NCBI GenBank assembly: GCA_051294905.1
Contig: CM119371.1
Coordinates: 30,816,001-30,880,000 of the forward strand
Length of the DNA stretch: 64,000 bases
Origin: Botryllus schlosseri
Taxonomy: Eukaryota
Reading direction: 5' to 3'
Made by a program: the position numbers and the translations under genes
Notes under the pieces: generated by a model
What the model saw: the letters and a program-made list of their open reading frames with translations, nothing else
The model's database searches: none
What the model was told of the DNA's origin: nothing
Shown: in pieces, positions 18,455 through 38,242 of the stretch
How positions within the stretch are numbered: position 1 is the stretch's first letter
Layout of the letters: every line of letters starts with the position of its first letter

Positions 18455-19545
18455 TCTGCAGCAGCTGCCTTGTAGTCTGTGGTCATTAGTGCTGATCGAC
18501 TTGTGGAATTATTATTCATAGACTGGCTCAAATTAATCATTATGACACACTTCTTATGTTTTGGGGTATCAATGTGAGTTGAAATAGCGGTCTTTCCTAT
18601 GGCCTCCTGGTTAATGTCACAATTGCAGATATTGCGCAAGTGCAATATCATTTAGAAAAATTTATCACTGATTTATAGCTTTACTACTTTTTAACCAATG
18701 TGTCGACTGCACTGCGTCTTTTTTCACTACGCAATATATGCTGCCTTCCCCACAGCTTCAGCTTATTCTGCTGTAGACCAAACAGCAGGAACCGGGTAGT
18801 GCTATTTACTGCTAAAATGACGTCCGCTGCGATAGCTTGGTACAGACGAAACTGCTATACCACCCACTGCCCTTGCTATTTCACCACTTGGTATTCAAAT
18901 CTTATGGCGTGTACGTCACGAGAGCTCCTTTCATTTATGATGTCATGAAGTCTCGACGCAAAAGCATAATTTAAGAATATGCAACACGGATACCAGAGAA
19001 AAACGATCGAAGTTCTGCAGTGGTTGAAAATAAGACAAAATAAGGACGCAAGTCGAAAATAAGGGCATTTCTTAGAAATAAGGACAGTTGAGTTTTCTAA
19101 GACGTGGCCCTTCAAAATAAGGACAAATCTTAGAAATAAGGACGGTATGGCAACCCTGGGTGCAGCCATTGCTAGCTCAGAATCATCACACCTAACAGTG
19201 GCATAGTCAGACGTGGTTTTAGGGTTCAAAACCCCACCGTACTCCCCAGGTCCTATTTCAAACTTATACTGTGATGTTCATAAGTCGATCCGATTCCGAT
19301 AAAATCAAAATTAATTATTAGCTTTGTAATTTATTCTAATTAATTCATTTGTGTTTTAATCAGTTACAGCCTGGAAGGCCTAGTTGCTGACTTTTCGAGG
19401 TCGTCAGTTGTAGTCTAGTTCTATAGTTACACATTTAGAAAATTCAGTCAGACCATACCAGCAGGCGGTATCTATACCGACATGATTAAATCATAAATTA
19501 TATTTTTTCCAGAGTTTTTTTCAGTTATTTATATCGATCATACAA

Positions 19546-21162: not shown

Positions 21163-22412
21163 TCATGTATCTCCAAACAATACGTCACCTCTGATACCAG
21201 ATTTGCCGATACCTGCAATTTCTTGCTGGGCAGCGGATGATTCGTCGTCACAACTGAAAGCTGGACATTTATTACTGGGACCATCGTCACCGTTAAAGCA
21301 TAATTTACTCGACGACAGTTTTGAGCTGATTTGATTCTTTCGCAATGGTGCAGAAATGGAAAATACGGACATATGTTACGATTTAGTGTATCGTTTGTCA
21401 GCTATCAAAAATGATTTAATGAAAATCACAGACGTTTACTTGAAATGCCTACCACACAGCATCTGGCTAATATTATGTTTAGCATGATAATCTGCGAAAT
21501 TATCGATCTTTGCATCTCTGAAAAGCTTTTTTGCGTAGTCCTACCGAATATAGTCTAGTCCGAATATACACTAATATGAAATTCAACATTAATCAGTTGT
21601 TACACGACCGCTGTCAAAATACCAGTGCTGAATTATTTCCAATCTGAGCACATCATGTCAATGTATTCACTGTTGATGATGCTTTATGTGTATTTAGTAT
21701 CCCTTCGTACTTGCGTATTAATCTCCAACAGTGTATGAAACGGTATCATTTGATAATGTGTCTCGTTTCTGCAATGTAGTAGCAATGTAACCAATCATTT
21801 TTGTTATAAATTTTTTGTTGATTGTGCTATTTGTTGAATGATGCAATTACTCAATTTGAAATCATTCTATTTCTGAATTCTAAACCCTCTCTGAAGGCGT
21901 TTTCTGCATGTCCCACACACATGTAATTCCTGTGCATGACGTATGTACTTCAAGTCTGTTTTCACTATTTCACAGTAATGTTTTGCATGCTTGCAAGTAC
22001 TTTGTGAATGATCTTTGTTGTTCGTACTTTCACCATATATAATAAAATACACTGTCTCCTTCGATCGAAGTCATATTTTCATCTAAATGTAGGCTACCTA
22101 TACAGGCTGCTCAGTGCTCACACTATGATGATTTGTCGTCGCATACAAGTTTTGGACTGTCGTCGTCAGATAAGTGCTAATGAATGCTTGGGCTGTTGGC
22201 AAATTCGATACATGAATCGCAGAAGTCAATTGGTTCGATCAAGATGAGGTCAAGATCGAGCTAGCCGGCAGAATAAAATCTGTGGTGTAGGGGTTGGGGT
22301 TGGAATCTCACATTTACTGTCCGGTGTTAGTGTGACAAACTGATATAGTAACTGATCTGAAGCGCTAGGTACTGCCAAAATTTATTCTATGCCGAGCACC
22401 GATTTTCACGGG

Positions 22413-23267
22413 AGTAGTATAGTAGATCGCTGGCACATTGGCGTTGTGGCTTATGGGCGGGGTCGCATGCTAACGCGAAACCGGGGGTCGCATGCTAACG
22501 TTTTCATCTTATGGCGGGGGTCGCATGCTAACGTTTTCATCTTATGGCGGGGGTGGCATGCTAACGTTTTCATCTTATGGCGGGGGTGGCATGCTAACGT
22601 TTTCATCTTATGGCGGGGGTCGCATGCTAACGTTTTCATCTTATGGCGGGGGTGGCATGCTAACGTTTTCATCTTATGGCGGGGGTGGCATGCTAACGTT
22701 TTCGTCTTATGGCCGGGGTGGCATGCTAACGTTTTCGTCTTATGGGTGCGGTCGCATGATAACGCGAAACTCGTGGTGGCATGCTAACGTTTTCGGGTAT
22801 AGGCGGCGGTCCCATGCTAACGTGAAAACTCGTGGTGACATGCTAATGTTTTTTGGTATACGTGCGGCGACATGCTAACGACGATAAATGTGTCTGTCAT
22901 GTATTCTTACGGGATCTGTGGTGACTCGCCATGTGTTCTTATGGGTGCGGTCGTGATTCGCACTTTCAGGCATCTCTCGCGCGGTGTTGAATATGTACGA
23001 GTCACCAACAATAACCTCACAAACGGAAACGCGGCTTGTTGTGGGGATTAAGCAGCGCGACCTATATTTCGAATGACCTGCGCGCTGAATTGTTTCACGT
23101 CCAGCCGCTACTATCGAATATTACACTATTCCATTCAGCGCGAAATAGTTTGATCGTAAATTATGATATATGATGTCGTAGTTTAGTCGTGTCAAATGAC
23201 CGATCGTGTTCTCTTTCCTCGCTATTGATTGCTACCTGAATAATACTTTCGGATTATTCGCTGTTTC
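22413..23267 (+). repeat. Left terminal inverted repeat (855 bp; diverged extension to ~23295)
   Basis: Reverse complement of 37388-38242 with no indels; one mismatch seen (23017 T vs 37638 C). Confidence 0.95.
22490..22753 (+). repeat. 33-bp tandem array in the TIR (8 units plus degenerate CATGCTAA motifs); mirrored at 37902-38165
   Basis: Unit GCATGCTAACGTTTTCATCTTATGGCGGGG(GTC/GTG); produces the spurious 11-aa periodic ORFs. Confidence 0.95.
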
Positions 23268-23432
23268 GCACCCACAAAATAATCTGCTGTTCACAGTCGC
23301 GACTTCACCGCGATGGCACAATTTTCACACCTCAATCAGTAGAACAACACCGCGCTAACCCAGTTGTGGAATCACATAGGTCATACATTTTACGCGAAAT
23401 GAAATATTGTATTGTGGTATACAAATATGCAA

Positions 23433-24044
23433 CTATTCTTTCAATTCAACAAGTCTAGTTAACGGATCGATTTTCAATCTGCCGACACAGTTTTTAACAC
23501 GAGTGAGTTGATATTTCTTCCCGGGTACGAGCGAGGCTTTGTTCCATTGATCCAAAACCACCTCACCAGTATCATCCTTCAATGTAAAACTGTATAATTT
23601 CAACTCCTTTCCGGCGCCGGAATTGATCATCTTCTCCTCTCGAGAAACACAAGTAGCGGCGATCGAGACGTATTCATCTTTATTTCCGTATACCGATTCA
23701 CAGGTCAATAATGGGTATTCTTCAGTCGTATGTCTCGATTTTCCATGCAGAGTTACTGACGAAGCCCGTCCCAGTAATACAGCAGGTTTTCCAGTAAACT
23801 TGTCAATTTGGACCCAACCGGATTTGACCATGAGTTTTTTTCGTTTGGAGAATGCTTTCTCAATGACACCGAACAATTCACGATTGAAACACGTGAAAGA
23901 TATCTCTTCGTTATTGCCGTCGATGAATATACCTTTGAGATATTGGCTAACGCCACCTCTTTTGGGTGATGAGACGAATTTGACGCCGACGTGAAAATTT
24001 GAAGTTGCTCCGACTTGCATAGTGTTGACGCTGTTCGATGTCAT
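23433..24044 (-). CDS. Polinton tandem OB-fold (RPA/SSB-like) ssDNA-binding protein
   Basis: Two beta-rich repeats; the second has the OB signature FTLKDDTGEVVLDQWN...GKKYQLTRVK and the first GIFIDGNNEEISFTCFN; TATAAATATAG (minus strand, 24081-24091) favours ATG 24044 over the track's TTG start at 24074. Confidence 0.7.
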   Translation of the reverse strand: MTSNSVNTMQVGATSNFHVGVKFVSSPKRGGVSQYLKGIFIDGNNEEISFTCFNRELFGVIEKAFSKRKKLMVKSGWVQIDKFTGKPAVLLGRASSVTLHGKSRHTTEEYPLLTCESVYGNKDEYVSIAATCVSREEKMINSGAGKELKLYSFTLKDDTGEVVLDQWNKASLVPGKKYQLTRVKNCVGRLKIDPLTRLVELKE

Positions 24045-24206
24045 ATCGTTTGATAAAGTGGGAGTCATCAACAAATCCGTCTATATTTATAGAATTAGGC
24101 ACGTGGTATTGAGTGAGTTAACAGTCTTTGTATAATCCTGATGACCCGCGTGAATAGACTTGGATTGAAATAAACTTTACAGGAGTTCTGTAAGAAAGGA
24201 TGCCGT

Positions 24207-24560
24207 TCACAAGTGACAAACCACACGAACGAATTTTCTTCTTACCCAGTCACTTATCAATGTACTGTAGTGAGTATTCAAGATGTCTGTTGCTAAATCT
24301 CTGTACGCCGCTAGGGTACGTATGTCACTTTTCATCGCCGCAATGCTTATGACACTAAAAACCCCATTCCAGTCGATGCCGTATGATCGAATCGAGTTAA
24401 CCAATGCGGTAAAATCGCACTTTCGAACACGGCTCACGTTTTGTCCATGTACATAGAAATCTAGTACTCCGTGGATGAATTTTTCCGTTTCGCTCAATGT
24501 GGGGGTTGTCAAGTTATGATAGTAGAGAAGGTAATTCTCAATAATCGCGCTAGTTGCCAT
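24207..24560 (-). CDS. Polinton hypothetical protein (117 aa)
   Basis: ATG-started ORF co-oriented with the OB-fold gene; no recognisable motif. Confidence 0.5.
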   Translation of the reverse strand: MATSAIIENYLLYYHNLTTPTLSETEKFIHGVLDFYVHGQNVSRVRKCDFTALVNSIRSYGIDWNGVFSVISIAAMKSDIRTLAAYRDLATDILNTHYSTLISDWVRRKFVRVVCHL

Positions 24561-24934
24561 AACGAGTATATGTAACTATCAACTGAAAAAGTAAACCATG
24601 AGAATGACACCACAATGTGTTAAAATGGTGAAATACACCGCTCAGATTTCGAAAAAACAGATGTTGGCGGGTGCGTTTGACATGTGTGACACAATAAAAT
24701 CGCCCGTTTCGCTAAACAGGAAACTCACTAAAGCGCTGTGCGCTGCGCAATTTTGAAAAACCAGATGTCTGTGGCGGTGTTTTGACCTGTGTGACACACT
24801 AAATACGTCCGGTTCAGAAATTCGGAAACACGGTCGGTTCTGAGGATTACGCAGTGTGCGTGCGGCCTATATTTCGAATGACCTGTGTGCTGAATTATTT
24901 CCCGTCCAGCCGCGTGCTACTATCGAATTTAATC

Positions 24935-24947
24935 TATAAATAGCCAA
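24935..24947 (+). promoter_or_regulatory. TATA-like promoter motif TATAAATAGCCAA
   Basis: Lies ~77 nt before ATG 25024; identical 13-mer at 31293-31305; TATAAATAG at 33074-33082. Confidence 0.6.
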
Positions 24948-25023
24948 CACCGCGATCTGGTTGTTATATTTCGCTGTCGCAGACATAAACGTTGGTTGGA
25001 GCAGTTAGATTAATTATTGTACA

Positions 25024-25731
25024 ATGGTCGAGGTTCAGATAGATAATCTTGACAAATTTGGTTATGAACCAAATGCATTCGAATCGCAATTTGAAGAGAA
25101 TGCGGATATCTTTGAAGCGATTAATCCTAATGATCTGATGACACCGGATTTAAGAGTTGAATCCGCAGAACGCGACCTTACGACAACGATCGAAATGCAA
25201 CCAAACCCCTCAGATATAGCGCGTCAGGTGGGGCTGAAGTCTGTGAGTCGACGCAGACGGAGTCGTGTTCGCGAGGAAGAAGACACACCACCAGAGACAG
25301 GCGACCAATACCAAGAAGTTGTATCCCAGAACTGGCAAGCGATAAAATCATATGTAGTGAATCAGAGTCGGCGCGTGTATAATATCCGAGTCATCGATCG
25401 TGAGATACCGGATGTTTTCCGCGATATCCAAGCGATATTTTTCTCAGAGTCGACCCTTTTCAAAGTGAATTTCGCGTATGGAATCATTTTACATAACATC
25501 GCGGCTGGGAGATTTCGGTATTTTCATGCGTCGGCGAACATCGATAGCGTATTAGAAGTCCCAGCGGCGATTACATCACTAGCTGAATTCGATGAATTTG
25601 TTGAATCTATAAGGTTGGAAACGGCACTAGATGTGTTACAAGACTCTCGACCAGATACAAAATACAGGGCGGTCTGTCTGGCTAATGTACAGTTTTACGT
25701 ATACCCCACTGATGGTTTGTTGATTGGTTAA
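25024..25731 (+). CDS. Stand-alone terminal-protein-like ORF (paralog of the pPolB N-terminus)
   Basis: 235 aa; contains FKVNFAYGIIL, FRYFHAS and RPDTKY motifs typical of Polinton pPolB N-termini; aligns with the start of the ORF at 26467 and stops at GLLIG*. Confidence 0.8.
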   Translation: MVEVQIDNLDKFGYEPNAFESQFEENADIFEAINPNDLMTPDLRVESAERDLTTTIEMQPNPSDIARQVGLKSVSRRRRSRVREEEDTPPETGDQYQEVVSQNWQAIKSYVVNQSRRVYNIRVIDREIPDVFRDIQAIFFSESTLFKVNFAYGIILHNIAAGRFRYFHASANIDSVLEVPAAITSLAEFDEFVESIRLETALDVLQDSRPDTKYRAVCLANVQFYVYPTDGLLIG

Positions 25732-26466
25732 GCTGATATCGAAATACCGCCAGGACTTACACAATCAAGATGTGCCACATCATTTATACGGCGAAAAAAA
25801 CTACGATGCCGATGTGTCTTTTCATGATCTCAATCATTTTCATAGCGAACAAAGAAAATAATCCTGTCATTGAATTTTATTGAGATGTACTTGTATATAA
25901 TGTGTGTGGTGTTATTGGGGTTTATTTGTACATTATGTTTGCTTAATATGAATTTTTTTTTGTATTGTTTGTTAATGTATCATTTGTTTTTCAGGTGGAT
26001 AACATTATTTCATATCTCAAGTCGGTTATGTCATTAGATTTAAATAGTTTACATATAGAGATTACATCGACGCAGGGATCAATGGTTTAATGAGTAAGTT
26101 ATTCGGTACGAGTACTTTGATTTATGAATATAATTTATTATTTGTTTATACTACAGACAAAAACAATCATCGAAATTTGTGCAAAGAATTGGATTGGTGA
26201 GTTATTACTGTTCAGAACTAGTGAGTGTGACGTACCGATTTTTGTTGTTGAACAGGCAGAGCAAACTCAAGGACTAATAACAACACGCAAGTCTACTGGT
26301 AAGTTATCCGCTATAACACAACGTTAGCGAGCGTAGTTTAATATGTCACTGATTTTATTAAGCATAAAGAGTCTAGGAAGACGCCGACAAAGAAAATAGA
26401 TTGTAAGTAAGACTAGTTTAATGTTCCCCAAGTGCTGAATTTGACTGTGTGTTATCGCTTATACAG

Positions 26467-29400
26467 ATGAGTCGACGACGGGGAAATCACGAGGACGAGA
26501 ATGAGCCACCAGAGATTGACAACCAACACCAACAAATTACATCTCAGAACCGACAAGCGATAAAATCGTATGTAGCGAACTGTAGCCGTGTGTATAATAT
26601 TCGCTCCTTGAACAAGCGGTTGGATGTTTTCCGTGATACCCAATCGTTCTGTCTGATCAACCCACAGTTAAATGTATATCCAGGTGCGGGCTTGTTGATT
26701 GGTTGTATTGGTATTAAAATACCTCGCGGGCTTACACAATCGAGATGTATCATGACATTTACACGCCGCAAAAACACTGTACCATACAATGACAATCTGT
26801 GTGCTTTTCGCTGTATCGCCAACTCGCTAGGAAAAGATACAAAAGCAATGGCCCAACAATTCACTTCGGTATATGGTATCAATGTAGAATCTGGTGTAAC
26901 TCTTGATATGCTTGACGATATCGAGGACTTGTTTAATGTAGCCATATTTGTGTACACAAAAACTGAGGGTAAAGCTGTCGCACTCCGTCGTAGTACGTTT
27001 GAAGCGAAACCTGTGTACTTACATTTAGAAGATCGCCATTTCTGTCTCATTACTAACGTGAACCGTTATGCGGAGAGCTATCGATGTGATGTTTGTCAAA
27101 GATTTTTCAATTTGCAGTATGAATTGACCAGACACAAATGTACAACAGAACCTGTTGAAGTGTTTCCGGGTGGCGTTTATAGCCCTCCGCTGAATATCTT
27201 TGAAAAACTTGATTTAGAAGGGGTGTTCGTTCCTCACCAGCTTCGTTATTTCAAATACCGTATCGCGTTTGATATCGAGAGTATGTTTGAGAAGTGTGAT
27301 ATTCCAGATTCCTCCAAAACTACATGGGAGTGCAAACATATCCCCATTTCTGTTAGCATATCTTCTAATGTGGAAGGATTCTTGGAACCGTATGTAATTG
27401 TCTCGAACGGTGACCCAAACGACTTGTGTGCGGAAATGGTTGATCATTTTCATGATATTCAAAGTGAGTCATTTAGGTTGTTACAGACGGAATATCAACA
27501 CTACTAGGACATGCTCGAAACTAAAATTACCGAAATGAAAGCACTCGATCCTTCCGAGAAAAAATACCACTTGAACGTTTACAAGAGGAGTTCATGCGAT
27601 ATTTAAAACAAATCCCTGTTTTATCGTTCAATGGCGGTCGGTATGACTTGAACTGTCTCAAAGAGTACTTGATGGGTTTACTCGTTGATGAAAATCTGAG
27701 TGTATTGAAGCGGGGTAACAACTTCCTCTCTTTGACAACCAACAGACTTAAATTTTTGGATATTGTGAATTACTTGGCACCTGGGTTCTCGTACGATGCT
27801 TATTTGAAAGCCTTCAAATGTAGCGCCGCTAAAGGTCATTTTCCGTATGAGTTTCTGACTAGTTTGGAAAAGTTGGATTATACTAGTCTACCTAGCCACG
27901 ATGAGTTTTACAGCTCGCTAAAAGGTCGTAATATATCCACAGCCGAATATGAAAACTGTTTGAAGGTTTGGAACGACAACAAAATGACGTCTTTACGTGA
28001 TTATCTCAAATGGTACAACGCAATCGATACTCATTACTTCATTGAGGGGTTAGAAAAACAATTTCAATCTTTCAAAAGTCAATTCAGTGTGGACATATTC
28101 AAAGAAGCTGTCTCCCTACCCGGGGTTGTATCGAGGCATCTTTTCAATAGCATCCCACGTGATTTCACCTTGTTCAATGATAAACACCAAGACCTGGTTT
28201 CGCTATTCAGAGACAATTTAGTGGGTGGACCGTCAGTCATTTTTCATCGATATCAAAAACAGGGTGAAACTCGAATCAAAGAATTTTTTTATAAGGAAAA
28301 CGCTCAGATTACCCAACATGTAACAGGGCTGGACAGCAATTCGTTAGACCTTTTTGCTTTGAGTGAACCTAGTCCAACCGGTTTCCCGGTGCATTGGCAA
28401 CCACTCGATGTTGAGTGTACTAAATTCAAACCGGCAAAGACCGCACCGAAATGGGGGGAGACTGCAGCTCAATGGCTAAACTGGTATTCGTATACCCACA
28501 ATGTACATGTCCACCATGCTTTTAATGGACCTGAAATCCGCGTAGGAGCTCGTAATTACCCTGCTGATGGGTTCTATCGTAATTCAGCTGGTCAAGGGGT
28601 AATCTTGTCTTTTCTGGGATGTCATTTTCATGCACATCAGTGTAGATTTGGTTGTGATGACTTGGAACGTCGAGAACGGACTAAACGTGTTCATGATTAT
28701 TACAAAAGCCTCAATTATCAAGTCATATGTAAATGGGAATGCGACTGGCGCACGGAGAAACAGGAAAATCCTGATATTGTGCGATATCTTAATGGTATTC
28801 AACCACAATTGACTCGAACCAAGTCTGTCACTGCACAAAAATTGATGGAGATGGTAATGACTGGTACATTCTTTGGGTGTTTATCAGTCGATATTTTTAC
28901 GCCAAAACATTTGCAAAGGAAGTTTGTTGAACTATGTCCGATATTCAAAAATACGATGGTGTCTCGCGAGCATTTGTCAGGGCACATGAAACAGTTTGCC
29001 ATTGATCGTAAATTGCTCCCCAAACCCACGCGCATGTTAGTTGCTTCATACTGGGGTAAGAAAATCTTGTTGACCTCCGACTTGATCAAGTGGTATGTAG
29101 AACACGGATTGATTATATCCAAAATTCATGAGGCGGTCGAATTCACAAAAAAGACCTGTTTTGACAACTTTGCGAAAAATGTCTCAGACTGTCGACGAGC
29201 TGGGGACCGCGACCCTAGCCTAGAGATCATTGCCCTGACACAAAAATTAGCCGGAAATAGCAGCTATGGCCGCGTCTTGATGAACCCACGTAAATTCAAA
29301 CGAACCTCCTACTGTGATAAAAGCGAATTAGGCGCCAATGTGAAGGATCGTTTTTTTGTGAAATGTGACGAATTGAACGCTGATCTATTTGAAATAACGA

Positions 29401-30059
29401 AGCGACCTAAAACGATCAAGTGGGGTAACTGTATTCAAGTGGGATTCTGGGTGTATAACAATGCTAAGCTCAAGATGTTGTCGTTTTTTTATGACTGCTT
29501 GTGTAAATATTTCCGTGACGAGTGCTTCATGCTATTAATGATGGACACAGACTCCCTCTATCTCTCGCATTCAGCCTCATTCGATGATATTCTTATCCCC
29601 GAGAAAAGGGATGAATTTTATCTTGAATATGAGAACTGGTTTCCACGCTATTTTCGTGACAAACACCGAGCTGAGTTTTTGGCTGACCCGGTTTCTTTTG
29701 ATCGCTCGAGGCAGTGTTGCAAAGACACGTATGCGTATTACCTTCGGCAACCGGGTTTGATGAAAGTGGAGTATGAAGGCGGTACATCCTTCTGCGGGCT
29801 CCAATCCAAAAATTACTTTTGCGATGGTCCAAAGAAAAAATTGGCTTCCAAAGGTCTCCAGAAATCCAACCCAATCGATTTCGAAACTTTTCTGGGTGTC
29901 TTGACGTCTAAAGAATCTGTCGGGGGAGTGAACAAGGGGTTTCGGTCCCGAGATGGGGGTGTCTATACGTACAAACAACAGCGTAAAACATTTTCCTATT
30001 TCTATGCCAAACGTCGAGTGCTCGAGGATGGTGTGTCAACCCTGCCATTGAATGTGTAA
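26467..30059 (+). pseudogene. polB: Protein-primed family B DNA polymerase (vOTU - Zn finger - exonuclease - polymerase with VSR-like insert), interrupted
   Basis: DNLCAFRC...HFCLI (OTU-like Cys/His), CDVC..HKC, ExoI FDIES, ExoII FNGGRYD, motif A DSNSLD, motif B KLAGNSSYG, motif C MDTDSLY; in-frame TAG at 27505-27507 and a frameshift near 27560-27570 split it into the track ORFs 26449-27507 and 27594-30059. Confidence 0.93.
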
Positions 30060-30688
30060 TTGTATATTTTGTGTGTTATTGCATTTTATTTGTATATTCT
30101 GTGTGTGTGTGTTTGATTTTATTTTGATTTACTTATTTATTACTTGTTTATATGTTTGATTGACTTGTGTGTGGTAACGTGTCATTTGTTTTCCAGATGG
30201 ATAACACTATCTAAAGTCTGTTATGTCATTAGATTTACATAGTTTAGATATAGATGATTACATTGGAGCAGGAATTACCACAGTTCATGATTCTTGACTC
30301 TACCAACAACTCACCACACCGACGATACCCGATTGATACAAAGCAGACAACTAGAACTTGTGCTCCATGGTGAGGTCTATAGTTGTTATAGTAACACTGT
30401 TAGATTTTAAAGCGTTATGAATCCTCTCGTATTATGAACCCTCTTATGCGATTTATTATTTTATAGATTGGGATCAGCTGCTCGACGACCTGAAGCATTC
30501 GTAACACTACAACTTCCACCGATGATGAGGGACAGATGAAGATTTCATAACCCGTGGAAAATTGTTAAATCGAACTCTACTGGGTTTATATATTCCACTA
30601 GAACAAGATGACTACAACAGTGGCTATTCCCAACCTTGTTGATATATAAACACATGCACTTTATCGAGTTTTCAATAAACAACAAACG

Positions 30689-31297
30689 ATGGAATTGATC
30701 CACCCATTCGCGTGTATTGTGAGTGGTCCTTCGAGAAGTTGGAAGACTACTTTTGTTGCAAAGCTGATTAGGCATGCGACATCCATGATTAAACCAAGTG
30801 TTTCCAGGGTCGTATATTGTTACAATAATTATCAGGAGGTTTTCAAGACGATGCATAACGTAGAATTCCACGCAGGTCTAGATATTTTAGAAGAGTTGAA
30901 GGTTTGCTCTGAAGACACTTTGATTATAGTGGATGATTTCATGACTGAGACGGCGAAAATTGCAGACTACTTTACAAGATTTTCTCATCATTCAGCCAAG
31001 TCAATTTGCTACATCACGCAGAACCTGTATCACAAGGGTGAAGGAGCACGTGACTTCAGTCTTTCAAGCTCGTATATGGTGATTTTCAAGAATCCGCGCG
31101 ACCAACAGCAGATCAGTTTTCTTGGTCGACAAATGTACCCAAACTTCAGATTTTTAACAGAGGCTTATCGTGACGCTGCTAGACAACCTCATAGTTATTT
31201 ATTCCTTGATCTCACGCAAGAAGCACCTGAAAATCGACGTGTTATGACCAATATATTTCCTGGTGAAACCATGGTGGTTTATAGCCCGATGGTATAA
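30689..31297 (+). CDS. A32/FtsK-like genome packaging ATPase (Walker A altered)
   Basis: HPFACIVSGPSRSWKTT (GKT changed to WKT), LIIVDDFM Walker B, FTRFSHH, ITQNLY, FKNPRD. Confidence 0.92.
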   Translation: MELIHPFACIVSGPSRSWKTTFVAKLIRHATSMIKPSVSRVVYCYNNYQEVFKTMHNVEFHAGLDILEELKVCSEDTLIIVDDFMTETAKIADYFTRFSHHSAKSICYITQNLYHKGEGARDFSLSSSYMVIFKNPRDQQQISFLGRQMYPNFRFLTEAYRDAARQPHSYLFLDLTQEAPENRRVMTNIFPGETMVVYSPMV

Positions 31298-31330
31298 ATA
31301 GCCAAGCGCGGAGACGATTTTAAATTCAAA

Positions 31331-31678
31331 ATGACCAAGGTACCAGCTCGGACACGGCGGCATATACCCACATTAGAGTTCCTACATAAAAGTAAACCCG
31401 AGATACGCAAGCAAATTATATCGGGAGCCAGCAAAGAATTGATCGAGTGTATATGTGATTGTACAAAGAACATTTTAAACGGCAACATCCCTCTTTCAAA
31501 GTATAAAAGAAAGCGACTAGCAGCTCATAAATGTAGTTTACGTCGACTTGTCAGGAAAGACATCCCTATTCGACATAAAAAACGTATGGTTAATCAGAAT
31601 GGGGGTATGTTTATGACTCTATTATCAAGCATCCTACCCGTCGTCACTGGTTTACTCGGTAATCTTTTCAAAAAATGA
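31331..31678 (+). CDS. Basic Polinton core-like protein with putative adenain site and C-terminal amphipathic helix
   Basis: Lys/Arg-rich; ICDCTKNILNGNIPL; QNGG followed by MFMTLLSSILPVVTGLLGNLF. Confidence 0.75.
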   Translation: MTKVPARTRRHIPTLEFLHKSKPEIRKQIISGASKELIECICDCTKNILNGNIPLSKYKRKRLAAHKCSLRRLVRKDIPIRHKKRMVNQNGGMFMTLLSSILPVVTGLLGNLFKK

Positions 31679-32073
31679 CTTCTTTTAAAAAAATCTTCAT
31701 AAATCCGAATCCGATCAACGAGGTTGAAGTTCAGAAATTGGATTTGGATATCGACAAATGTATGAGCGACATATTACAGATGAACATACCCCAAGAACGA
31801 AAATTAGCCTTATATAACGACGCACTAAATCGTTATCAAACAAAACACGACACATTGAATCAACCGATGAAAATCGATATATCAGAACAAAGGAATCTAT
31901 TTTCGGCTAGTGAGTTGGACGCACTGCGACGCCTGATCAAGGGTGAACCATCAAGGATTCCTAAACCCCACTCACCGAGTAGCCAACGAAGCAAAGTAAA
32001 GACTCAACATGCCAAGACGAAAAGTGGTCGTACACCCAAGACCCTGAGACGATACGGATGGGAGCCATACTAA
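31675..32073 (+). CDS. Polinton hypothetical protein (132 aa)
   Basis: ATGA overlap with the upstream gene; helical core IDKCMSDIL...KLALYNDALNRY; basic tail ending in WEPY. Confidence 0.7.
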   Translation: MTSFKKIFINPNPINEVEVQKLDLDIDKCMSDILQMNIPQERKLALYNDALNRYQTKHDTLNQPMKIDISEQRNLFSASELDALRRLIKGEPSRIPKPHSPSSQRSKVKTQHAKTKSGRTPKTLRRYGWEPY

Positions 32074-33082
32074 GTATTTCACACCAGGGCTACCTGGTAG
32101 TTACCGCGGTGCATACGTATTCTCTAGAGGGCGGAATAGAACCAAAGTCAAGGAGTTTCTTTCGAGCAAGGACGCGTACACAAAACATTTTCCCTATCGG
32201 AAGAAATTTAAGAGACCTAGAGTGATTACGTCGGGTCTTGGTGTTCAGTATCAAACCGATCTCATGCATATGCAAAATCTTTCAAAAGAAAACGATAATT
32301 TTAAATATGTGTTGGTGACGATCGATTGTTTCAGCCGATTTTTATATCTGTATCCGCTCAAGAACAAAACCTCGCAAGGTATTATTCGCGGATTCAAGGA
32401 AATATTTAAGGATCGTATACCTCATGTTATTCAAAGTGATCAAGGTTCTGAGTTTACTAATCGTGCGTTTCAGACTTTCTTAAAAGAGAACAATGTGCGA
32501 CATTTTCATACAAATAGCGAACTGAAAGCATCGATATGCGAGCGTGTTATTCGTACTCTGAAGCAAGTGTTATACCGGTATTTCACGCATAATAAGACTT
32601 TGAATTATGTCAATGTCCTGTCTGAGATATGCCAGGGGTATAACACTACTTTTCACGTGGCGGCTATAGGGTGTCCTCCGGCGGATGTTAATTATTCGAA
32701 TCAAGAACAAATTTTTCATAGGTTATACGGTGACATGACCCCTAAAAAACCCAAACTAACTATCGGCACACCCGTCAGGATTTCGAAATCGCGTGGTAAT
32801 TTTGTAAAAAGTGCCTTGGCGAGTTGGACCGAAGAAATCTTTTTCGTATCTCAATGTCGTAAAGGTGACCCTCCTACTTATCAATTGAAAGACTACCATG
32901 GTGAAGTTATAGACGGTCGCTTTCAGCGTGAAGAGTTACAACCAATAACTAAAAATAATAATATTTACAATATCGAAAAAATCCTGTCTACTCGCAGGAA
33001 AGGAAAGAAAACGCAATATCTTGTAAAATGGTTGGGTTATCCGTCTAAATTTAATTCTTGGGTCTCGGATTTGTATAAATAG
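32054..33082 (+). CDS. int: Retroviral-like (RVE) DDE integrase with C-terminal chromodomain
   Basis: YQTDL, IDCFSR, QSDQGSEF, ERVIRTLK; chromodomain YNIEKIL...YLVKWLGYPSKFNSWV; frame open from 32048 and includes the N-terminal YFTPGLPGSYRG...DAYTKH motif; no ATG, candidate ACG start at 32054. Confidence 0.93.
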   Translation, partial: TDGSHTKYFTPGLPGSYRGAYVFSRGRNRTKVKEFLSSKDAYTKHFPYRKKFKRPRVITSGLGVQYQTDLMHMQNLSKENDNFKYVLVTIDCFSRFLYLYPLKNKTSQGIIRGFKEIFKDRIPHVIQSDQGSEFTNRAFQTFLKENNVRHFHTNSELKASICERVIRTLKQVLYRYFTHNKTLNYVNVLSEICQGYNTTFHVAAIGCPPADVNYSNQEQIFHRLYGDMTPKKPKLTIGTPVRISKSRGNFVKSALASWTEEIFFVSQCRKGDPPTYQLKDYHGEVIDGRFQREELQPITKNNNIYNIEKILSTRRKGKKTQYLVKWLGYPSKFNSWVSDLYK

Positions 33083-33091
33083 ACTCTGAAA

Positions 33092-33325
33092 ATGTTGTTC
33101 AACCAAACTATGGATTCTGATTCCGTCTCATCTCGCATGGGTCAAGTCTCGAACAGTCTGAAAAACCAGATTGTGTTTATTGTACAGATTTGTATGTTAG
33201 TGTGTGTAATCGTGTTTTCATTATATCAAATTTCTGTCGGGGTGGATCGTGAGATATATTTAACGCTACTGTCTTCTTCACTTGGGTATTTATTACCGAA
33301 TCCATCACCTCATCGTATATGTTGA
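33092..33325 (+). CDS. Small two-TM membrane protein
   Basis: Hydrophobic IVFIVQICMLVCVIVFSLYQI and IYLTLLSSSLGYLLPNP segments; preceded by TATAAATAG. Confidence 0.7.
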   Translation: MLFNQTMDSDSVSSRMGQVSNSLKNQIVFIVQICMLVCVIVFSLYQISVGVDREIYLTLLSSSLGYLLPNPSPHRIC

Positions 33326-33338
33326 AAGAAACAATAAA

Positions 33339-34169
33339 ATGTTGTTGACTCTACCTTCGAACGCGAGTTTGGATAAATTTCCGAATACTAGCACAGATTT
33401 TCAAACGGAACTTTACAAAGAATTAGAAATGAATCGCCATGAGCTAGGATTATGTGAGCTGACCTTCCCACATGATTTCCAACCGCGAATTGAAGTGACA
33501 GCGAAAAGTATACGTTTTGGATTTGTCGATACAAATGGATACACCGAACGGTATTATATTCCCGAAGGCTCGTATTACAGCATCGGTGAAATGTTAGAAT
33601 CGTACGAGAAATATTACATGGGCGACATTTTCATTTTACAAGGATTCGGAGACTTTAGAATCACATTCAGAAGATTAGTCACGAGTAAAAAAAGACCCAA
33701 GCGGGGTGTACCCATAAATACCGATACCGCAGACTCTAGCGCCAGACACGTACCCCGTACCACACATGATTCACCCGAACCTTACGGACTGATACCACTT
33801 GGTTCTGTGTTGGATACAATAACATTTAGACGCGTTGTATCTCGTCGCCGCGGAGTGGTAGAATTTATATTTACACCTGCGGTAAAGCTGGAACGGATTG
33901 ATAAGGTTTATGTGTATTGTGATCTGATACAACCAAGACCACACGGTAACAAACTACAACAACTTTTACGGGTGGTTACTGTAACCGCTAAACCGAATGA
34001 AAACCAAATCAACATATTCCCAAAACCATACTTCTTTGCTTTAGCGAGAAACAATTTTAGAACAATACGAATTTATCTACGTGATGCAGCTGGCAACCCT
34101 ATTAAATTTCGAAAAGCACCAGTGACAGTAACCCTACGCTTCCGTCGCAGAGCTGTTGATTCAATATGA
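33339..34169 (+). CDS. Minor capsid protein (penton) paralog 1, 276 aa
   Basis: LTLPSNASLDKFPNT..F N-terminus; YVYCDLI, LLRVV, FPKPYFF, IRIYLRDAAG C-terminal motifs; ATG 33339 is the likely start. Confidence 0.85.
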   Translation: MLLTLPSNASLDKFPNTSTDFQTELYKELEMNRHELGLCELTFPHDFQPRIEVTAKSIRFGFVDTNGYTERYYIPEGSYYSIGEMLESYEKYYMGDIFILQGFGDFRITFRRLVTSKKRPKRGVPINTDTADSSARHVPRTTHDSPEPYGLIPLGSVLDTITFRRVVSRRRGVVEFIFTPAVKLERIDKVYVYCDLIQPRPHGNKLQQLLRVVTVTAKPNENQINIFPKPYFFALARNNFRTIRIYLRDAAGNPIKFRKAPVTVTLRFRRRAVDSI

Positions 34170-34837
34170 GTTACATCACGTTGTCTGACACCAAAGGTGA
34201 ATTCTCGGTGGTGTTGCCGAATGAAATTATTTGTAATGAGCTTGCGTTGATGGATATGAGTTTTGTCAGTGAATCTCGTGATCGAATTATAATCAATCAT
34301 GATCAAGCACTCTGGAAGCTACATAACGAAAAAGGTCGAATAGTAGATGCGTACCTAACACCACTTGGGAATTACGCAAACAACCTCGAGTTGACCCGGA
34401 GAATATTATCTGAAAGTTTCAAACACTGTTTCGCCGAAAGAATCAACGATGAACTTTTCCGAATTCGTTACCCGAAACATATCACACTCCACCCCACGGA
34501 TATATTCACGAATTATTTCAGTGTAGTTGATCAAGTGTCGACACCAGTATGTAATGTCACATCGATCAAATCTAAACCAACTCAACCCCACCTCAGATAT
34601 TTATTTGTGTATATCAATGCACTACGACATCATCCGGTGGGTGATTACATGAGTCAATTGCTTCGTGTGATCCAAGTAAATAACGAGACGTGTATGAGAC
34701 AAGAAGTTGTATATGAAAAACCGTTTTATTTCCCAGTGTCGATTAACCACATCCGCGATATAAAAATCACCATCCGGGACCAATACGGTCAGTTAGTACA
34801 TGATATAGAGACCACATTGACACTCCACGCACGATGA
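34166..34837 (+). CDS. Minor capsid protein (penton) paralog 2, 223 aa
   Basis: ELALMDMSF; LFVYIN, VGDYMSQLLRVI, PFYFPV, IKITIRDQYG; ATGA overlap. Confidence 0.8.
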   Translation: MSYITLSDTKGEFSVVLPNEIICNELALMDMSFVSESRDRIIINHDQALWKLHNEKGRIVDAYLTPLGNYANNLELTRRILSESFKHCFAERINDELFRIRYPKHITLHPTDIFTNYFSVVDQVSTPVCNVTSIKSKPTQPHLRYLFVYINALRHHPVGDYMSQLLRVIQVNNETCMRQEVVYEKPFYFPVSINHIRDIKITIRDQYGQLVHDIETTLTLHAR

Positions 34838-35229
34838 AAATAGTGACGTTAACCACCTCTATGCTTGGTGTTGATTTTGAACACAGACTACTCACCATCA
34901 ATAACATTCCGACGAGATATTGCGAATTAGCCCTCATGGAGATCGATTTCACTTTAACCGAACCGGCGATTGGTCAATATTTGTTTGTGTATTGCGATAT
35001 TATTCGCCCTCACTTACTTGGAGATACGTTAGCGCATTTATTACGAGTTATACCGCTGACACCTGGCGATGTCGCGCATAATTGGATAGCGACAAATCCG
35101 TATTATTTCCCTGTTTCAAAAGATGTTGTAGATTCTGTATGTCTTTACCTCAGGGATGAGTTTGGTGAACCTATAAATATAATAAGTCGTTCATTGCAAG
35201 CTACATTTAACATTAGGAAGCGATTATGA
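34834..35229 (+). CDS. Minor capsid protein (penton) paralog 3, 131 aa (core only)
   Basis: ELALMEIDF directly joined to LFVYCDII, LGDTLAHLLRVI, PYYFPV, LYLRDEFG; ATGA overlap. Confidence 0.8.
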   Translation: MKIVTLTTSMLGVDFEHRLLTINNIPTRYCELALMEIDFTLTEPAIGQYLFVYCDIIRPHLLGDTLAHLLRVIPLTPGDVAHNWIATNPYYFPVSKDVVDSVCLYLRDEFGEPINIISRSLQATFNIRKRL

Positions 35230-35576
35230 AAGTTGTTTTCACGTGTGATCATCATTCTGTCCATCGTCATTATAACCAGACAGGTGATGGTTATGGATAT
35301 TTTAGTGGTGGAGTTCAAGCCGGTTCCGGTATCGGGAGTTTGTTTAAATCACTTGGTCGTTTAGTGACACCTATTGCGAAATACGCTGGCGGTCAATTGT
35401 TACGGACTGGAGGTGAAATAGCGAGAGATCTATTACGGGGTTACTCGATCAAGTCTAGTGTTGTCAAGAGAAGTAAACAAGCCGGCGGTCGAGTGATTGA
35501 TAAAATTTTAACCCCAAAAGCTATAAAAAGGAAAAAAAACAAAGTCAAAGAACACTTCATCCAAACGTCGTCGTAA
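35226..35576 (+). CDS. Basic virion core/membrane-active protein with QxGxG cleavage motifs
   Basis: QTGDG and QAGSG followed by amphipathic IGSLFKSLGRLVTPIAK; basic tail; immediately upstream of MCP. Confidence 0.78.
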   Translation: MKVVFTCDHHSVHRHYNQTGDGYGYFSGGVQAGSGIGSLFKSLGRLVTPIAKYAGGQLLRTGGEIARDLLRGYSIKSSVVKRSKQAGGRVIDKILTPKAIKRKKNKVKEHFIQTSS

Positions 35577-35603
35577 ACAACAGGATATATTCGACTAAGA
35601 ACT

Positions 35604-36875
35604 ATGTTGATGCACGCGGGTTCCAGAGAATGCCATAACTCGGGATTAAACATATTTAGTATACCCCACACACAAACCAGTATTGAGGAATCGCAATATG
35701 TCGTCGTCAAACCCCATAGTTTAGGTAATGTCATGGAAGTACAATTACCAAGGACGGATCGATATATGGATCTACAAAACACATTCTTGAGATTACGTCT
35801 GAAGCTCACTAAACGCGATGGAACTGATTTAGCAAACGATACACAAGTGGGTCTGGTCAATAACATGTTGGATTCTCTTTTCAAACAAATTGATGTAACT
35901 ATTTCAAATGAGGTTATCACAAATTCGGATAATTGTCATGCGTACAAAGCTTATATCTCCCGGTTGTTGAATGATACTCACGGTGCCTCGGAGAGTTTTG
36001 TGCAAGGACAAGGTTTTTATAAAGATGTCGCTGGCTCTATGGATGCTCTTGGTGCAGCGAATACTGGATATGTTAAACGAAAAGACCTTACAAAAAACAG
36101 CACCCCGCTAGAGTTGATCGGAAAAATTCGAATGGGTCTTTTTGAACAGTCTAGATGTATGTTGGATAATGTCGACATGAAATTAAAATTTACACGTAAC
36201 GAAGATAATTTTTGTCTGCTTGGTGATGCGGAAGATGTACAAATTGTTTTACTCGAAATGGAGGTGTATGTCAAACAGATGAAGATCGCTGAAAGTGTAA
36301 GCTTAGCACACAAGTCTGTATTACAGAAGAATACTGCCAAGTACCCCTGGATACGCTTACAAATGTCGACTCATACATTCGCCGCGGGTTTGTCGAAAAT
36401 TGATAGAGAGTTAGTTAGCGGTACCATGCCAAAGAAGATCGTAATTGGTTTAGTTGAGACCACGACATTTAACGGTGTTCGAGCCAAAAATCCATTCAAC
36501 TTTAAACACTTTGATGTTCAAAATCTTTCGTTAAGTGTGGACGGGCGACAAATTAACGGCCGCGAATTTCATTTCGATTTTGATAAACACGGCGGACTGG
36601 AAGGTTATATGACACTATTCTCCCAGACAGGTCGCTGGGAATCCGAGGCACCTTTAAATATTTCACGCAAAGATTATGTCAACGGATACACTCTTTTTGT
36701 GTTTGATTTGACACCCGATAATAGTTTGGGATGTTATCAACTTCATAAGACAGGAACTGTGCATCTGGTTTTGACTACGTCGAAGCCTTTACCAACCTCC
36801 GTAACCTTGTTATGTTTGAAGGAGTTTCAACATCTTCTACAGCTGAATCAAAAAAGACAAGTCGTCGAAATATGA
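35604..36875 (+). CDS. Double jelly-roll major capsid protein (423 aa)
   Basis: LNIFSIPHTQTSIE, VNNMLDSLFKQIDV, PKKIVIGLV, NPFNFKHFDV, YVNGYTLFVFDLTPD typical of Polinton MCP. Confidence 0.93.
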   Translation: MLMHAGSRECHNSGLNIFSIPHTQTSIEESQYVVVKPHSLGNVMEVQLPRTDRYMDLQNTFLRLRLKLTKRDGTDLANDTQVGLVNNMLDSLFKQIDVTISNEVITNSDNCHAYKAYISRLLNDTHGASESFVQGQGFYKDVAGSMDALGAANTGYVKRKDLTKNSTPLELIGKIRMGLFEQSRCMLDNVDMKLKFTRNEDNFCLLGDAEDVQIVLLEMEVYVKQMKIAESVSLAHKSVLQKNTAKYPWIRLQMSTHTFAAGLSKIDRELVSGTMPKKIVIGLVETTTFNGVRAKNPFNFKHFDVQNLSLSVDGRQINGREFHFDFDKHGGLEGYMTLFSQTGRWESEAPLNISRKDYVNGYTLFVFDLTPDNSLGCYQLHKTGTVHLVLTTSKPLPTSVTLLCLKEFQHLLQLNQKRQVVEI

Positions 36876-37315
36876 ATACGTCTGAGATCAATGATATTCT
36901 CTATAACCACCCTGACACACAAAGTCTATATCTAGGCACTTATCCAGTAGACCAGTTACCAAAGAAACCAACTAACGGGAAATTCGCTATCACCATTAAT
37001 TACGACGAATCGAGTTTGCCTGGATCTCACTGGGTGTCTATATACAGAGATGAGGATACTCATTTTCATGATTCACTAGGTTTCGGACCACTAAAACCTC
37101 AGATATTCCAATTCCTGGAGCCAGATGAATTTTCTGTGACTGGGAAACAGTTACAGAGTAAAACTTCGGATGTGTGTGGAGATCATGCTATCGCATTCTT
37201 GATAACAAGAGCTCAAGGGTTTTCAACCGAGGAATACTTGGATAGTTTTGGCGATGATAAAAAAGTGAATGATACGATTGTACGTGCTTTTGTGAAGAGT
37301 TTGATTTCAGAGTAA
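36872..37315 (+). CDS. Adenain-like capsid maturation cysteine protease (147 aa)
   Basis: PGSHWV (His), FHDSLG (Asp), QLQSKTSDVCGDH (Gln/Cys); ATGA overlap with the MCP stop. Confidence 0.92.
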   Translation: MNTSEINDILYNHPDTQSLYLGTYPVDQLPKKPTNGKFAITINYDESSLPGSHWVSIYRDEDTHFHDSLGFGPLKPQIFQFLEPDEFSVTGKQLQSKTSDVCGDHAIAFLITRAQGFSTEEYLDSFGDDKKVNDTIVRAFVKSLISE

Positions 37316-37387
37316 TAAACGAATGTGTAAATGTGTATACTTGTGATTCTTGTTGTGGTTGTGAACAGCAGACTATTTCGTAGGCGG

Positions 37388-38242
37388 GAAACAGCGAATA
37401 ATCCGAAAGTATTATTCAGGTAGCAATCAATAGCGAGGAAAGAGAACACGATCGGTCATTTGACACGACTAAACTACGACATCATATATCATAATTTACG
37501 ATCAAACTATTTCGCGCTGAATGGAATAGTGTAATATTCGATAGTAGCGGCTGGACGTGAAACAATTCAGCGCGCAGGTCATTCGAAATATAGGTCGCGC
37601 TGCTTAATCCCCACAACAAGCCGCGTTTCCGTTTGTGCGGTTATTGTTGGTGACTCGTACATATTCAACACCGCGCGAGAGATGCCTGAAAGTGCGAATC
37701 ACGACCGCACCCATAAGAACACATGGCGAGTCACCACAGATCCCGTAAGAATACATGACAGACACATTTATCGTCGTTAGCATGTCGCCGCACGTATACC
37801 AAAAAACATTAGCATGTCACCACGAGTTTTCACGTTAGCATGGGACCGCCGCCTATACCCGAAAACGTTAGCATGCCACCACGAGTTTCGCGTTATCATG
37901 CGACCGCACCCATAAGACGAAAACGTTAGCATGCCACCCCGGCCATAAGACGAAAACGTTAGCATGCCACCCCCGCCATAAGATGAAAACGTTAGCATGC
38001 CACCCCCGCCATAAGATGAAAACGTTAGCATGCGACCCCCGCCATAAGATGAAAACGTTAGCATGCCACCCCCGCCATAAGATGAAAACGTTAGCATGCC
38101 ACCCCCGCCATAAGATGAAAACGTTAGCATGCGACCCCCGCCATAAGATGAAAACGTTAGCATGCGACCCCCGGTTTCGCGTTAGCATGCGACCCCGCCC
38201 ATAAGCCACAACGCCAATGTGCCAGCGATCTACTATACTACT
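37388..38242 (-). repeat. Right terminal inverted repeat
   Basis: Reverse complement of 22413-23267. Confidence 0.95.

Follow-up and report, generated by a model that had tools for sequence, protein, structure and literature searches.

A probable spliced non-coding leader in front of the polymerase gene of Polinton elements in Botryllus schlosseri

Introduction

Can a gene that is usually treated as intron-less be preceded by a chain of introns that the host would have to remove? The question is raised by a stretch of Botryllus schlosseri DNA of 64,000 nt (assembly GCA_051294905.1, contig CM119371.1, positions 30,816,001 to 30,880,000 of the forward strand), referred to here as the window and used for the numbering of all positions. 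It holds a Polinton/Maverick element with a gene for a protein-primed DNA polymerase, polB, and an earlier reading of the letters alone (the original prediction) had placed in front of this gene four introns of about 60 nt separated by exons of about 40 nt, in a chain ending exactly at the polB ATG. Polinton/Maverick gene expression is almost unknown, and the core genes are routinely described as intron-less. Passages of Barreat and Katzourakis (2021, PMC8097293) report no introns in intact vertebrate Mavericks and state agreement with Kapitonov and Jurka (2006) on this point, and the part of the preprint by Widen et al. (10.1101/2022.07.12.499685) that deals with nematode Mavericks calls their core genes intronless. 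Among the listings and selected passages of the literature on polintons or Mavericks and introns or splicing, we found no paper on a spliced polB leader.

Our analysis supports, at a probability of roughly 0.7, the reading that positions 26094-26466 are the intron-exon part of a non-coding spliced 5′ leader of Polinton polB. Splicing is the favoured explanation because the sites are under selection, the exons between them are non-coding, the chain is tied to open reading frames (ORFs) of polB or of a protein resembling the terminal protein (TP) that are themselves open, and the same design is found in two families of elements.

Results

The intron chain in the window

When the sequence was re-read, four GT..AG units were found exactly at the positions that had been claimed. 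The introns measure 63, 59, 64 and 64 nt, their donors are GTAAGT at 26094, GTGAGT at 26197, GTAAGT at 26299 and GTAAGT at 26403, and their acceptor AGs end at 26156 (TACAG), 26255 (AACAG), 26362 (TTAAG) and 26466 (TACAG), the last of them directly abutting the polB ATG at 26467. The exons before polB are 99, 40, 43 and 40 nt long if the first is counted from TTTTTCAG ending at 25994, and successive donors are spaced by 103, 102 and 104 nt. Two flanking candidate introns, cited earlier as host introns of matching size (40380-40443 and 57241-57304), are both 64 nt long and run from GT to AG on one strand; a look for host introns by way of a HAUS6 homologue gave no clean one.

Seen in a single copy, such a chain could be due to chance, or its units could be an eroded tandem repeat, mirtron-type hairpins or introners. 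The similar sizes of the units are in line with these ideas, and introners have been reported in dinoflagellate Maverick-Polinton-like elements, according to passages of PMC11957031. The motif GTRAGT occurs 30 times on the plus strand of the window, five of them at the leader, and at least four fell within 320 nt in 17 of 500 block-wise shuffles, so that the clustering by itself is merely modestly unusual and conservation across copies is the deciding point. Chance is excluded by the site-specific conservation described below. A tandem-repeat origin was rejected, as Tandem Repeats Finder gave nothing at score 30 and the pairwise alignments of introns and exons all remained at z ≤2.3; mirtrons or structured RNA were rejected, as the four introns fold like shuffles (z -0.36 to +0.16) with no Rfam match at E ≤ 1; and introners were rejected, since each of the 53 listed genome matches extends beyond a single intron and the four introns are mutually unlike. 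We consider this whole group of explanations very improbable.

Conservation of the splice sites across copies

The leader was compared across the copies of the element in the same genome. From 34 fetched loci 41 instances were extracted, of which 37 are distinct and 70-98% identical to the window, and the comparison set 36 splice-site positions (24 donor and 12 acceptor) against 337 other leader positions. The mean pairwise difference among the 37 instances was 0.024 at the donor positions and 0.027 at the acceptor positions, compared to 0.167 in intron interiors, 0.163 in pre-acceptor tracts, 0.180 in exons 2-4 and, at the start of the ORF (33 nt), 0.275. When gaps were scored as a character state of their own, the splice sites came to 0.041 and the other positions to 0.197 (Mann-Whitney p 7.6e-7); when the site set was shifted circularly, all 372 placements gave higher values than the real one, the lowest being 0.049. 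Sites and neighbours are compared within one alignment, so shared ancestry acts on both alike. GTRAGT is kept at donors 1 to 4 in 36, 34, 37 and 36 of the instances, with the bare GT present in 36-37, and the acceptor AG of introns 1 to 4 in 35, 37, 37 and 37, while an additional GTGAGT within intron 2 (26221), which serves as an internal control, is kept in just 9 of 37. Intron lengths stay near 63, 57-60, 58 or 64, and 63-66 nt, with an overall range of 57-68 nt.

The original prediction had named conservation of the splice sites across copies as a check on its claim, and the sites are kept in the 37 distinct instances. The alignment shows purifying selection on all eight splice sites of a family with more than 300 polB-bearing copies. 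The chain ending at the polB ATG is real sequence and selectively kept, and so is a homologous form of it in a second family.

The junction between leader and ORF was also followed genome-wide with sequence patterns made of the end of exon 4 and the start of the ORF. A spacer of intron size is kept in 14/14 and 47/47 of the matches, and no intron-less genomic copy of the junction was found with these patterns. In 20 of 36 pattern matches, the ORF that begins at the last acceptor remains open as far as the fetched sequence goes; in 6 it is a uniform TP-like ORF of 162 amino acids, and in the other 10 it is shorter. Thirteen spacer-less pattern matches were considered as intron-less copies and rejected, because all belong to an unrelated repeat family. 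This repeat (loci L035-L047, 13 places) holds the 17-mer AAGATTATGAGTCGACG, which mimics an intron-less leader/ORF junction and may mislead k-mer searches.

Non-coding character of the mini-exons

The lengths of the short exons vary among the 37 instances, with 33, 34, 39 or 40 nt for exon 2, 35, 36 or 43 nt for exon 3 (67 nt in a single instance) and 33, 37, 40 or 41 nt for exon 4. A stop codon stands in frame one codon ahead of the ATG in 29 of them; in the window it is the TAG at 26397-26399 of the last exon, in frame with the polB ATG, which had been correctly reported as separating the joined exons from the polymerase frame. We read the mini-exons as a non-coding 5′ leader, because their lengths change by amounts that are not multiples of three and because of this stop. 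If they were instead coding and extended the N-terminus of the polymerase, their total of 222 nt, a multiple of 3, would be accounted for, yet the stop one codon before the ATG, its counterpart in the second family (a TAA that abuts the ATG), the length differences of 1, 3, 4, 6 or 7 nt among copies and an exon variability that equals that of the introns all speak against it, and we give a coding role practically no weight.

Exons and introns differ in composition as well, with 46% A and 17% T in the exons and 28% A and 39% T in the introns. Candidates for a pyrimidine-rich tract or a branch-point-like motif ahead of an acceptor are TGTTGTTGAACAG, conserved where intron 2 ends, and a conserved GAATTTGAC block situated about 21 nt upstream of the 3′ end of intron 4. 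The joined exons 2-4 contain 6 ATGs per 4,330 nt and are ATG-free in 32 of 37 instances, a suggestive depletion, and the leader introns contain 220 ATGs per 9,248 nt, or 3-10 per copy. Within the introns of the window, the ATG at 26421 opens an ORF of 5 codons in the unspliced sequence. The leader had been predicted to carry upstream ORFs: its non-coding nature is borne out, while the upstream ORFs arise solely from exon 1, which lies inside a duplicated flank specific to the sub-lineage of the window.

A homologous leader in a second Polinton family

Among the 55 polB candidates that were scored, four polB-core matches are 70-71% identical to the first family and represent a second one, with at least 14 copies of 92-100% mutual identity (loci L048-L061; for example G000 C11:4968498-4972900). 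Its leader has three introns of 73-75, 71-72 and 69 nt with GTAAGT or GTGAGT donors and CAG acceptors, separated by A-rich, ATG-free exons that measure 43 and 36 nt. Its final AG is followed immediately by the ATG of MSRRRR, the start of a long-type polB (the long type has about 85 N-terminal residues more than the short type, to which the window belongs), and a TAA stands directly before this ATG. All three donors (GTRAGT) and all three acceptors are kept in 12/12 anchored copies of the 14 fetched, and the exons carry insertions or deletions, +3 nt in 4 copies and +2 nt in 5 copies.

The leaders of the two families reach a local alignment score of 33, compared to 20.1 ± 2.3 for shuffles (0/200 reach it), and the alignment pairs the 5′ part of intron 3 of the first family with intron 2 of the second; for the two ORFs, the score over the initial 300 nt is 213. 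A further block of 39 nt, located about 100-135 nt upstream of donor 1, is conserved between the families (score 26 vs 16.3 ± 2.1; 0/200). This homology together with the shared design indicates that the leader is older than the split of the families. It has diverged much faster than polB, with one intron gained or lost and with the splice sites and the junction at the ATG retained.

The second family also bears on the possibility that the GTRAGT and YAG motifs are kept for a role other than splicing, either as U1 small nuclear ribonucleoprotein sites that suppress premature 3′-end formation or retain the RNA, or as DNA-protein sites spaced by about 103 bp in a promoter or origin. The regular donor spacing in the window would suit such a role, as would the conservation of the donor block as far as GTAAGTTAT in introns 1-3 and of some interior blocks. 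It is also true that no spliced RNA was seen in the run X23 described below, in which the depth over the leader and polB is 0-1.4. However, the acceptor AGs and the tracts that precede them are conserved too, at distances typical of introns, exons and introns contrast sharply in composition (A-rich vs T-rich), and the second family pairs its donors and acceptors at other lengths (69-75 nt) and in another number of units, which argues against a fixed DNA periodicity. A role without splicing is in our judgement improbable.

RNA reads and the case against splicing

No run on record as RNA that contains the stretch was found among the RNA-run records for positions 19500-29499. From X23, the sole run recorded as RNA that was used here, a sample of about 6%, or 12.9 million reads, was aligned on 23300-37300; 568 reads were placed there, of which 547 fit just partly. 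The family is silent in these reads, and the spliced-read test is thus without power to decide. The sole strong X23 signal on the element lies at 30305-30771, with a depth of 26 and 21 by orientation. Its reads fit just partly and continue into unlike sequence, so that the probable source is a different transcript or a diverged relative.

Contigs from three runs of unrecorded kind (X1, X2 and X15) were examined as well. They look like DNA, in that all 30 bins are covered, non-coding ones included. In one X1 contig (depth 2.7), position 26402 is followed by one A and then by 25244. This joint would be the product expected from the removal of intron 4 in a copy with a long-type start, and the pattern search of the assembly revealed no matching intron-less copy, the 14 and 47 matches all keeping the spacer; we treat it as a lead only.

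Several observations weigh against the interpretation of the chain as a spliced leader. X23 shows no junction at any of the four introns, with a depth that ranges from 0 to 0.8 across 25635-27502 and does not exceed 1.4 in polB, and the contigs of X1, X2 and X15 carry the leader in unspliced form, for example over 25808-26142. Parts of the intron interiors are conserved in addition to the sites. The conservation was measured within the transposon families of one genome, where gene conversion or trans-mobilisation could blur the target of selection, and the depletion of ATGs in the exons is in part inherited from one ancestor, so that the 37 instances are not 37 independent observations of it. 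Finally, a TATATT is conserved just 38 nt before donor 1 in unrearranged copies; as a promoter it would imply an implausibly short first exon.

Gene X, the TP-like reading frame and the origin of the window arrangement

What precedes the leader differs among the copies of the first family. In unrearranged copies the order is a gene that we call gene X (an ORF of 295 amino acids in locus L021), its stop and an AATAAA, about 150 nt, the leader and polB; the stop and AATAAA are about 230 nt before the first donor, and homology to the leader of the window begins at 26087, 7 nt before donor 1. Some copies have a long-type and others a short-type polB. The unrearranged leader is probably driven by a separate promoter located in the approximately 150 nt between the AATAAA of gene X and donor 1, and the 39-nt block shared between the families fits, as far as its position goes, a polB promoter followed by a first exon of about 100 nt.

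In a second arrangement the unit of leader, polB and 3′ flank is present twice, the first copy being reduced to the flank and the 162-amino-acid ORF, which corresponds to the N-terminal part of the long-type polB, after which a second leader and a short-type polB follow. The TP-like ORF has its own four-intron leader in L012, L013, L014, L018, L019 and L020 (at oriented position 1044), and the polB downstream of it is without the approximately 85 residues of that N-terminal part. The arrangement shows that the separation of the TP-like N-terminal part involved a duplication of gene and leader together, with the result that both genes carry the leader. These six loci thus have a separate ORF of 162 amino acids homologous to the polB N-terminus, as a stand-alone TP gene would be. 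That it is the TP part of the polinton polymerase is plausible from its position, because the N-termini of polinton pPolB are described as TP domains in passages of Krupovic et al. (2024, PMC11161782), which give the layout of the protein as TP domain, vOTU and polymerase and also include a Stylophora polinton with a separate TP gene. Six further loci (L021, L022, L023, L028, L032 and L034) have gene X, a single leader and a short-type polB, with no TP-like ORF in the fetched stretch. Recombination between paralogous leaders could have produced them, leaving them without the TP part.

The window belongs to a sub-lineage in which a deletion removed the remainder of gene X and the first leader, fusing codon 73 of gene X to the start of the 162-amino-acid ORF. 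The fusion junction, GAAGTC[G/T] followed by GTGAGTCGAC, is common to the window and 11 loci. Positions 24935-25241 of the window equal the part of L021 that comprises the TATA box of gene X and its first 73 codons. The DNA of the fusion ORF past the junction matches long-type polB copies, and residues 74-137 of the fusion protein (P0001) are 55% identical to residues 1-60 of the window polB (P0002; BLASTP, E 2e-16). The ORF at 25024-25731, which had been taken for a free-standing TP gene with its own promoter, is instead a fusion of gene X codons with a duplicated piece of polB, and the TATA box claimed at 24935 is present (TATAAATA) but belongs upstream of gene X, as it does in L021. The stop of the TP-like ORF is TGA in 17/17 other distinct copies and TAA in the window. 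Between this ORF and the leader lies a copy of the polB 3′ flank (25865-26079) that is confined to the sub-lineage with the duplication. Inside this flank copy are a TATATAA (25894-25900) and TTTTTCAG, which resembles an acceptor and ends at 25994; TTT[TC]CAG at that place is kept in 19/19 loci of the sub-lineage. Because the polB ORF of the window is broken and the probable promoter region of the leader is replaced here by this duplicated flank, the window leader is most likely an intact-looking relic of a trait of the family.

The history of the sub-lineage bears on another explanation, adapted from the original prediction and restricted to this sub-lineage, in which a single promoter (the TATA at 24935) gives one long pre-mRNA that would yield the fusion of the 73 gene X residues with TP when left unspliced and the polymerase when a donor further upstream is spliced to the acceptors of the leader, in the manner of adenovirus E2B; in the sister arrangement with two leaders, an upstream donor could pair with a downstream acceptor and thereby skip the TP ORF. 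Read-through from upstream is plausible here, since the leader of the sub-lineage is without the canonical upstream region and stands behind a copy of the polB 3′ flank. The fusion junction moreover creates a GTGAGT at 25243, at a codon boundary, which is kept in the window and 11 loci, the 219 nt of 25024-25242 are 73 codons, so that a splice to 26467 would stay in frame, and the upstream and downstream leaders are paralogous with splice sites kept in both. On the other hand, the GTGAGT at 25243 arises automatically from the deletion junction and is no evidence of use, the unrearranged gene X has its own stop and AATAAA ahead of the leader, the block conserved between families lies upstream of donor 1, the TATATAA at 25894-25900 could be a local promoter, and the region is silent in the X23 RNA reads. 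We regard a single shared promoter as unlikely, if somewhat less so than the other alternatives discussed above.

The element and its other features

The element (Table 1) has the attributes of a Polinton/Maverick: a protein-primed polB, a retrovirus-like integrase, terminal inverted repeats (TIRs) and a 6-bp duplication. Pfam DNA_pol_B_2 (PF03175) matches P0003 with E 1.2e-7, and rve (PF00665; E 5.3e-15) and a Chromo domain are found on 32264-33082; a match of AAA_14 on 30689-31297 is weak (E 0.0095, below the cut-off), and the Pfam search of the other ORFs of the element gave no match. In the 495-Mb assembly, the polB core used as a query returned 313 first-look candidates. Of the 55 that were scored, 50 show 92-100% identity, and the majority of them are open over 1205-1300 amino acids with no internal stop. 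Outside this genome, 0 relatives of P0003 were found in viral_contigs.

Table 1. Coordinates of the leader, the polymerase gene and other features of the element in the window
Feature	Position	Strand	Description
Leader intron 1	26094..26156	+	63 nt, GTAAGT..CAG; GTAAGT in 36/37, CAG in 35/37, length 63 in 35/37
Leader exon 2	26157..26196	+	40 nt, non-coding, A-rich; window copy without ATG
Leader intron 2	26197..26255	+	59 nt, GTGAGT..CAG; GTRAGT in 34/37, GT in 37/37, CAG in 37/37
Leader exon 3	26256..26298	+	43 nt, non-coding
Leader intron 3	26299..26362	+	64 nt, GTAAGT..AAG; GTRAGT in 37/37, AG in 37/37
Leader exon 4	26363..26402	+	40 nt, non-coding, 3′ end TAG ATT
Leader intron 4	26403..26466	+	64 nt, GTAAGT..CAG; GTRAGT in 36/37, AG in 37/37
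Exon 1 as originally predicted (uncertain)	25995..26093	+	unrearranged copies match just the last 7 nt (26087-26093)
Short-type protein-primed polB	26467..30059	+	broken: in-frame TAG 27505-27507, frameshift before 27594
TATAAATA box	24935-24942	+	upstream of gene X; same box before the 295-amino-acid gene X ORF in L021
Gene X, first 73 codons	25024..25242	+	fused in frame to TP-like piece; homology to other copies ends at 25241
Duplicated N-terminal (TP-domain-like) piece of long-type polB	25243..25731	+	start position reads GTG; TAA 25729-25731
Paralogue of polB 3′ flank (30074-30275)	25865..26079	+	blastn 73%, 218 columns, E 4.8e-28
Polinton/Maverick element	22413..38242	+	15,830 bp; TIRs, target-site duplication, Pfam domains
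Target-site duplication CACGGG, 6 bp	22407-22412 and 38243-38248		both sides of the element
Inverted terminal repeats	22409-23295 / 37360-38246		887 nt, 99% complementary

Some further features of the element were observed on the way. Both TIRs contain arrays of tandem repeats of about 33 nt with GGGGTCGCATGCTAACGTTTTC...-like units (22482-22764 and 37891-38173), which give a ladder of shifted inverted-repeat pairs. The sequence at 24862-24913, upstream of the gene X TATA, recurs in the TIR at 37547-37598 (52 nt, 90% complementary), and 23024-23119 of the other TIR likewise matches the gene X promoter region of L021, the recurring element being 50-100 nt long; it may be a promoter or enhancer module shared by the TIRs and gene X. 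On the minus strand, a direct repeat of about 50 nt in two copies (24793-24745 and 24691-24643; GTGTCACACA.GTCAAA...CATCTG.TTTTT) sits where gene X and the minus-strand genes diverge. For the divergent gene on the minus strand, a possible leader intron (24728 to 24583) was considered and rejected, because its GTGAGT donor at 24728 is kept in 0/16 other copies, 13 of which have GTGAAT, 2 are without the G and 1 has GCGAAT. The late-gene ORFs at 34166-34837, 34834-35229 and 35226-35576 overlap by 4 nt from stop to start, a prokaryote-like packing for which a route of eukaryotic translation is not obvious.

Discussion

If 26094-26466 acts as a spliced leader, the host spliceosome would remove four U2-type introns of about 60 nt, and use of the last acceptor would make the main exon begin with the polB AUG. 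The spliced leader would be free of AUG and A-rich, with a length of about 120 nt plus exon 1, and the end of exon 4 would supply the A at position -3 of the polB AUG. In unspliced RNA, translation would begin at short upstream ORFs instead, so that both polB and the split-off TP-like ORF would need splicing in order to be translated. An ORF of 1200-1300 codons that is otherwise without introns would in addition profit from the better export and translation that spliced mRNAs enjoy.

A more elaborate scheme can be proposed in which these properties act together, namely that the replication genes are gated by splicing, that the introns mark the transcript as 'self' and that the paralogous leaders form a unit of alternative splicing. 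With upstream AUGs in the introns and none in the exons, polB and the TP-like protein would be translated solely from spliced RNA; the intron chain may mark the transcript of the invader as 'self' in the face of host silencing of intron-poor genes; and a donor of the upstream leader would pair with the matching acceptor of the downstream leader, skipping TP. This combination is speculative and we think it doubtful as a whole. If it were true, these elements would be a living intermediate towards the separate spliced pTP and Pol mRNAs of the adenovirus E2B type.

Adenoviruses have a tripartite late leader, and short upstream exons are found on their E2B pTP and Pol mRNAs. The likeness to the proposed Polinton leader lies in the combination of a nuclear, protein-primed linear double-stranded DNA with short non-coding exons that are spliced by the host in front of intron-less ORFs, those for the polymerase and the terminal protein included. 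In contrast to the adenovirus late leader, which is common to a family of late mRNAs, the Polinton leader is private to polB, with a duplicate for the TP-like ORF, and its introns measure about 60 nt rather than kilobases; the likeness is one of working principle, which on the Polinton side is proposed here from sequence.

Compared to Polintons as usually described, the elements studied here are conventional in their TIRs, 6-bp duplication, pPolB, rve integrase and uninterrupted polB ORF, and unlike them in having a conserved chain of three or four introns in what would be a 5′ untranslated leader. In the text of PMC11161782, 'intron' and 'splic' occur 0 times; unlike the polintons described there, both the TP-like gene and polB carry their own copy of the intron chain here. 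The stand-alone 162-amino-acid ORF upstream of a shortened polB in six loci resembles the Stylophora polinton with its separate TP in the same paper. The dinoflagellate introners in the passages of PMC11957031 are likewise spliceosomal-type introns inside Polinton-like elements, but those are dispersed inserted copies of a transposon, whereas the four introns of the present leader are mutually unlike and have no stand-alone copies among the matches listed.

Surveys that consider only ORFs miss introns in untranslated regions. The leader is a concrete regulatory module that can be tested, and it would add a parallel at the level of gene expression to adenoviruses, which passages of PMC11161782 derive from polintons. 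If the splicing reading is true, Polintons would be transcribed in the nucleus by the host and would depend on the host spliceosome.

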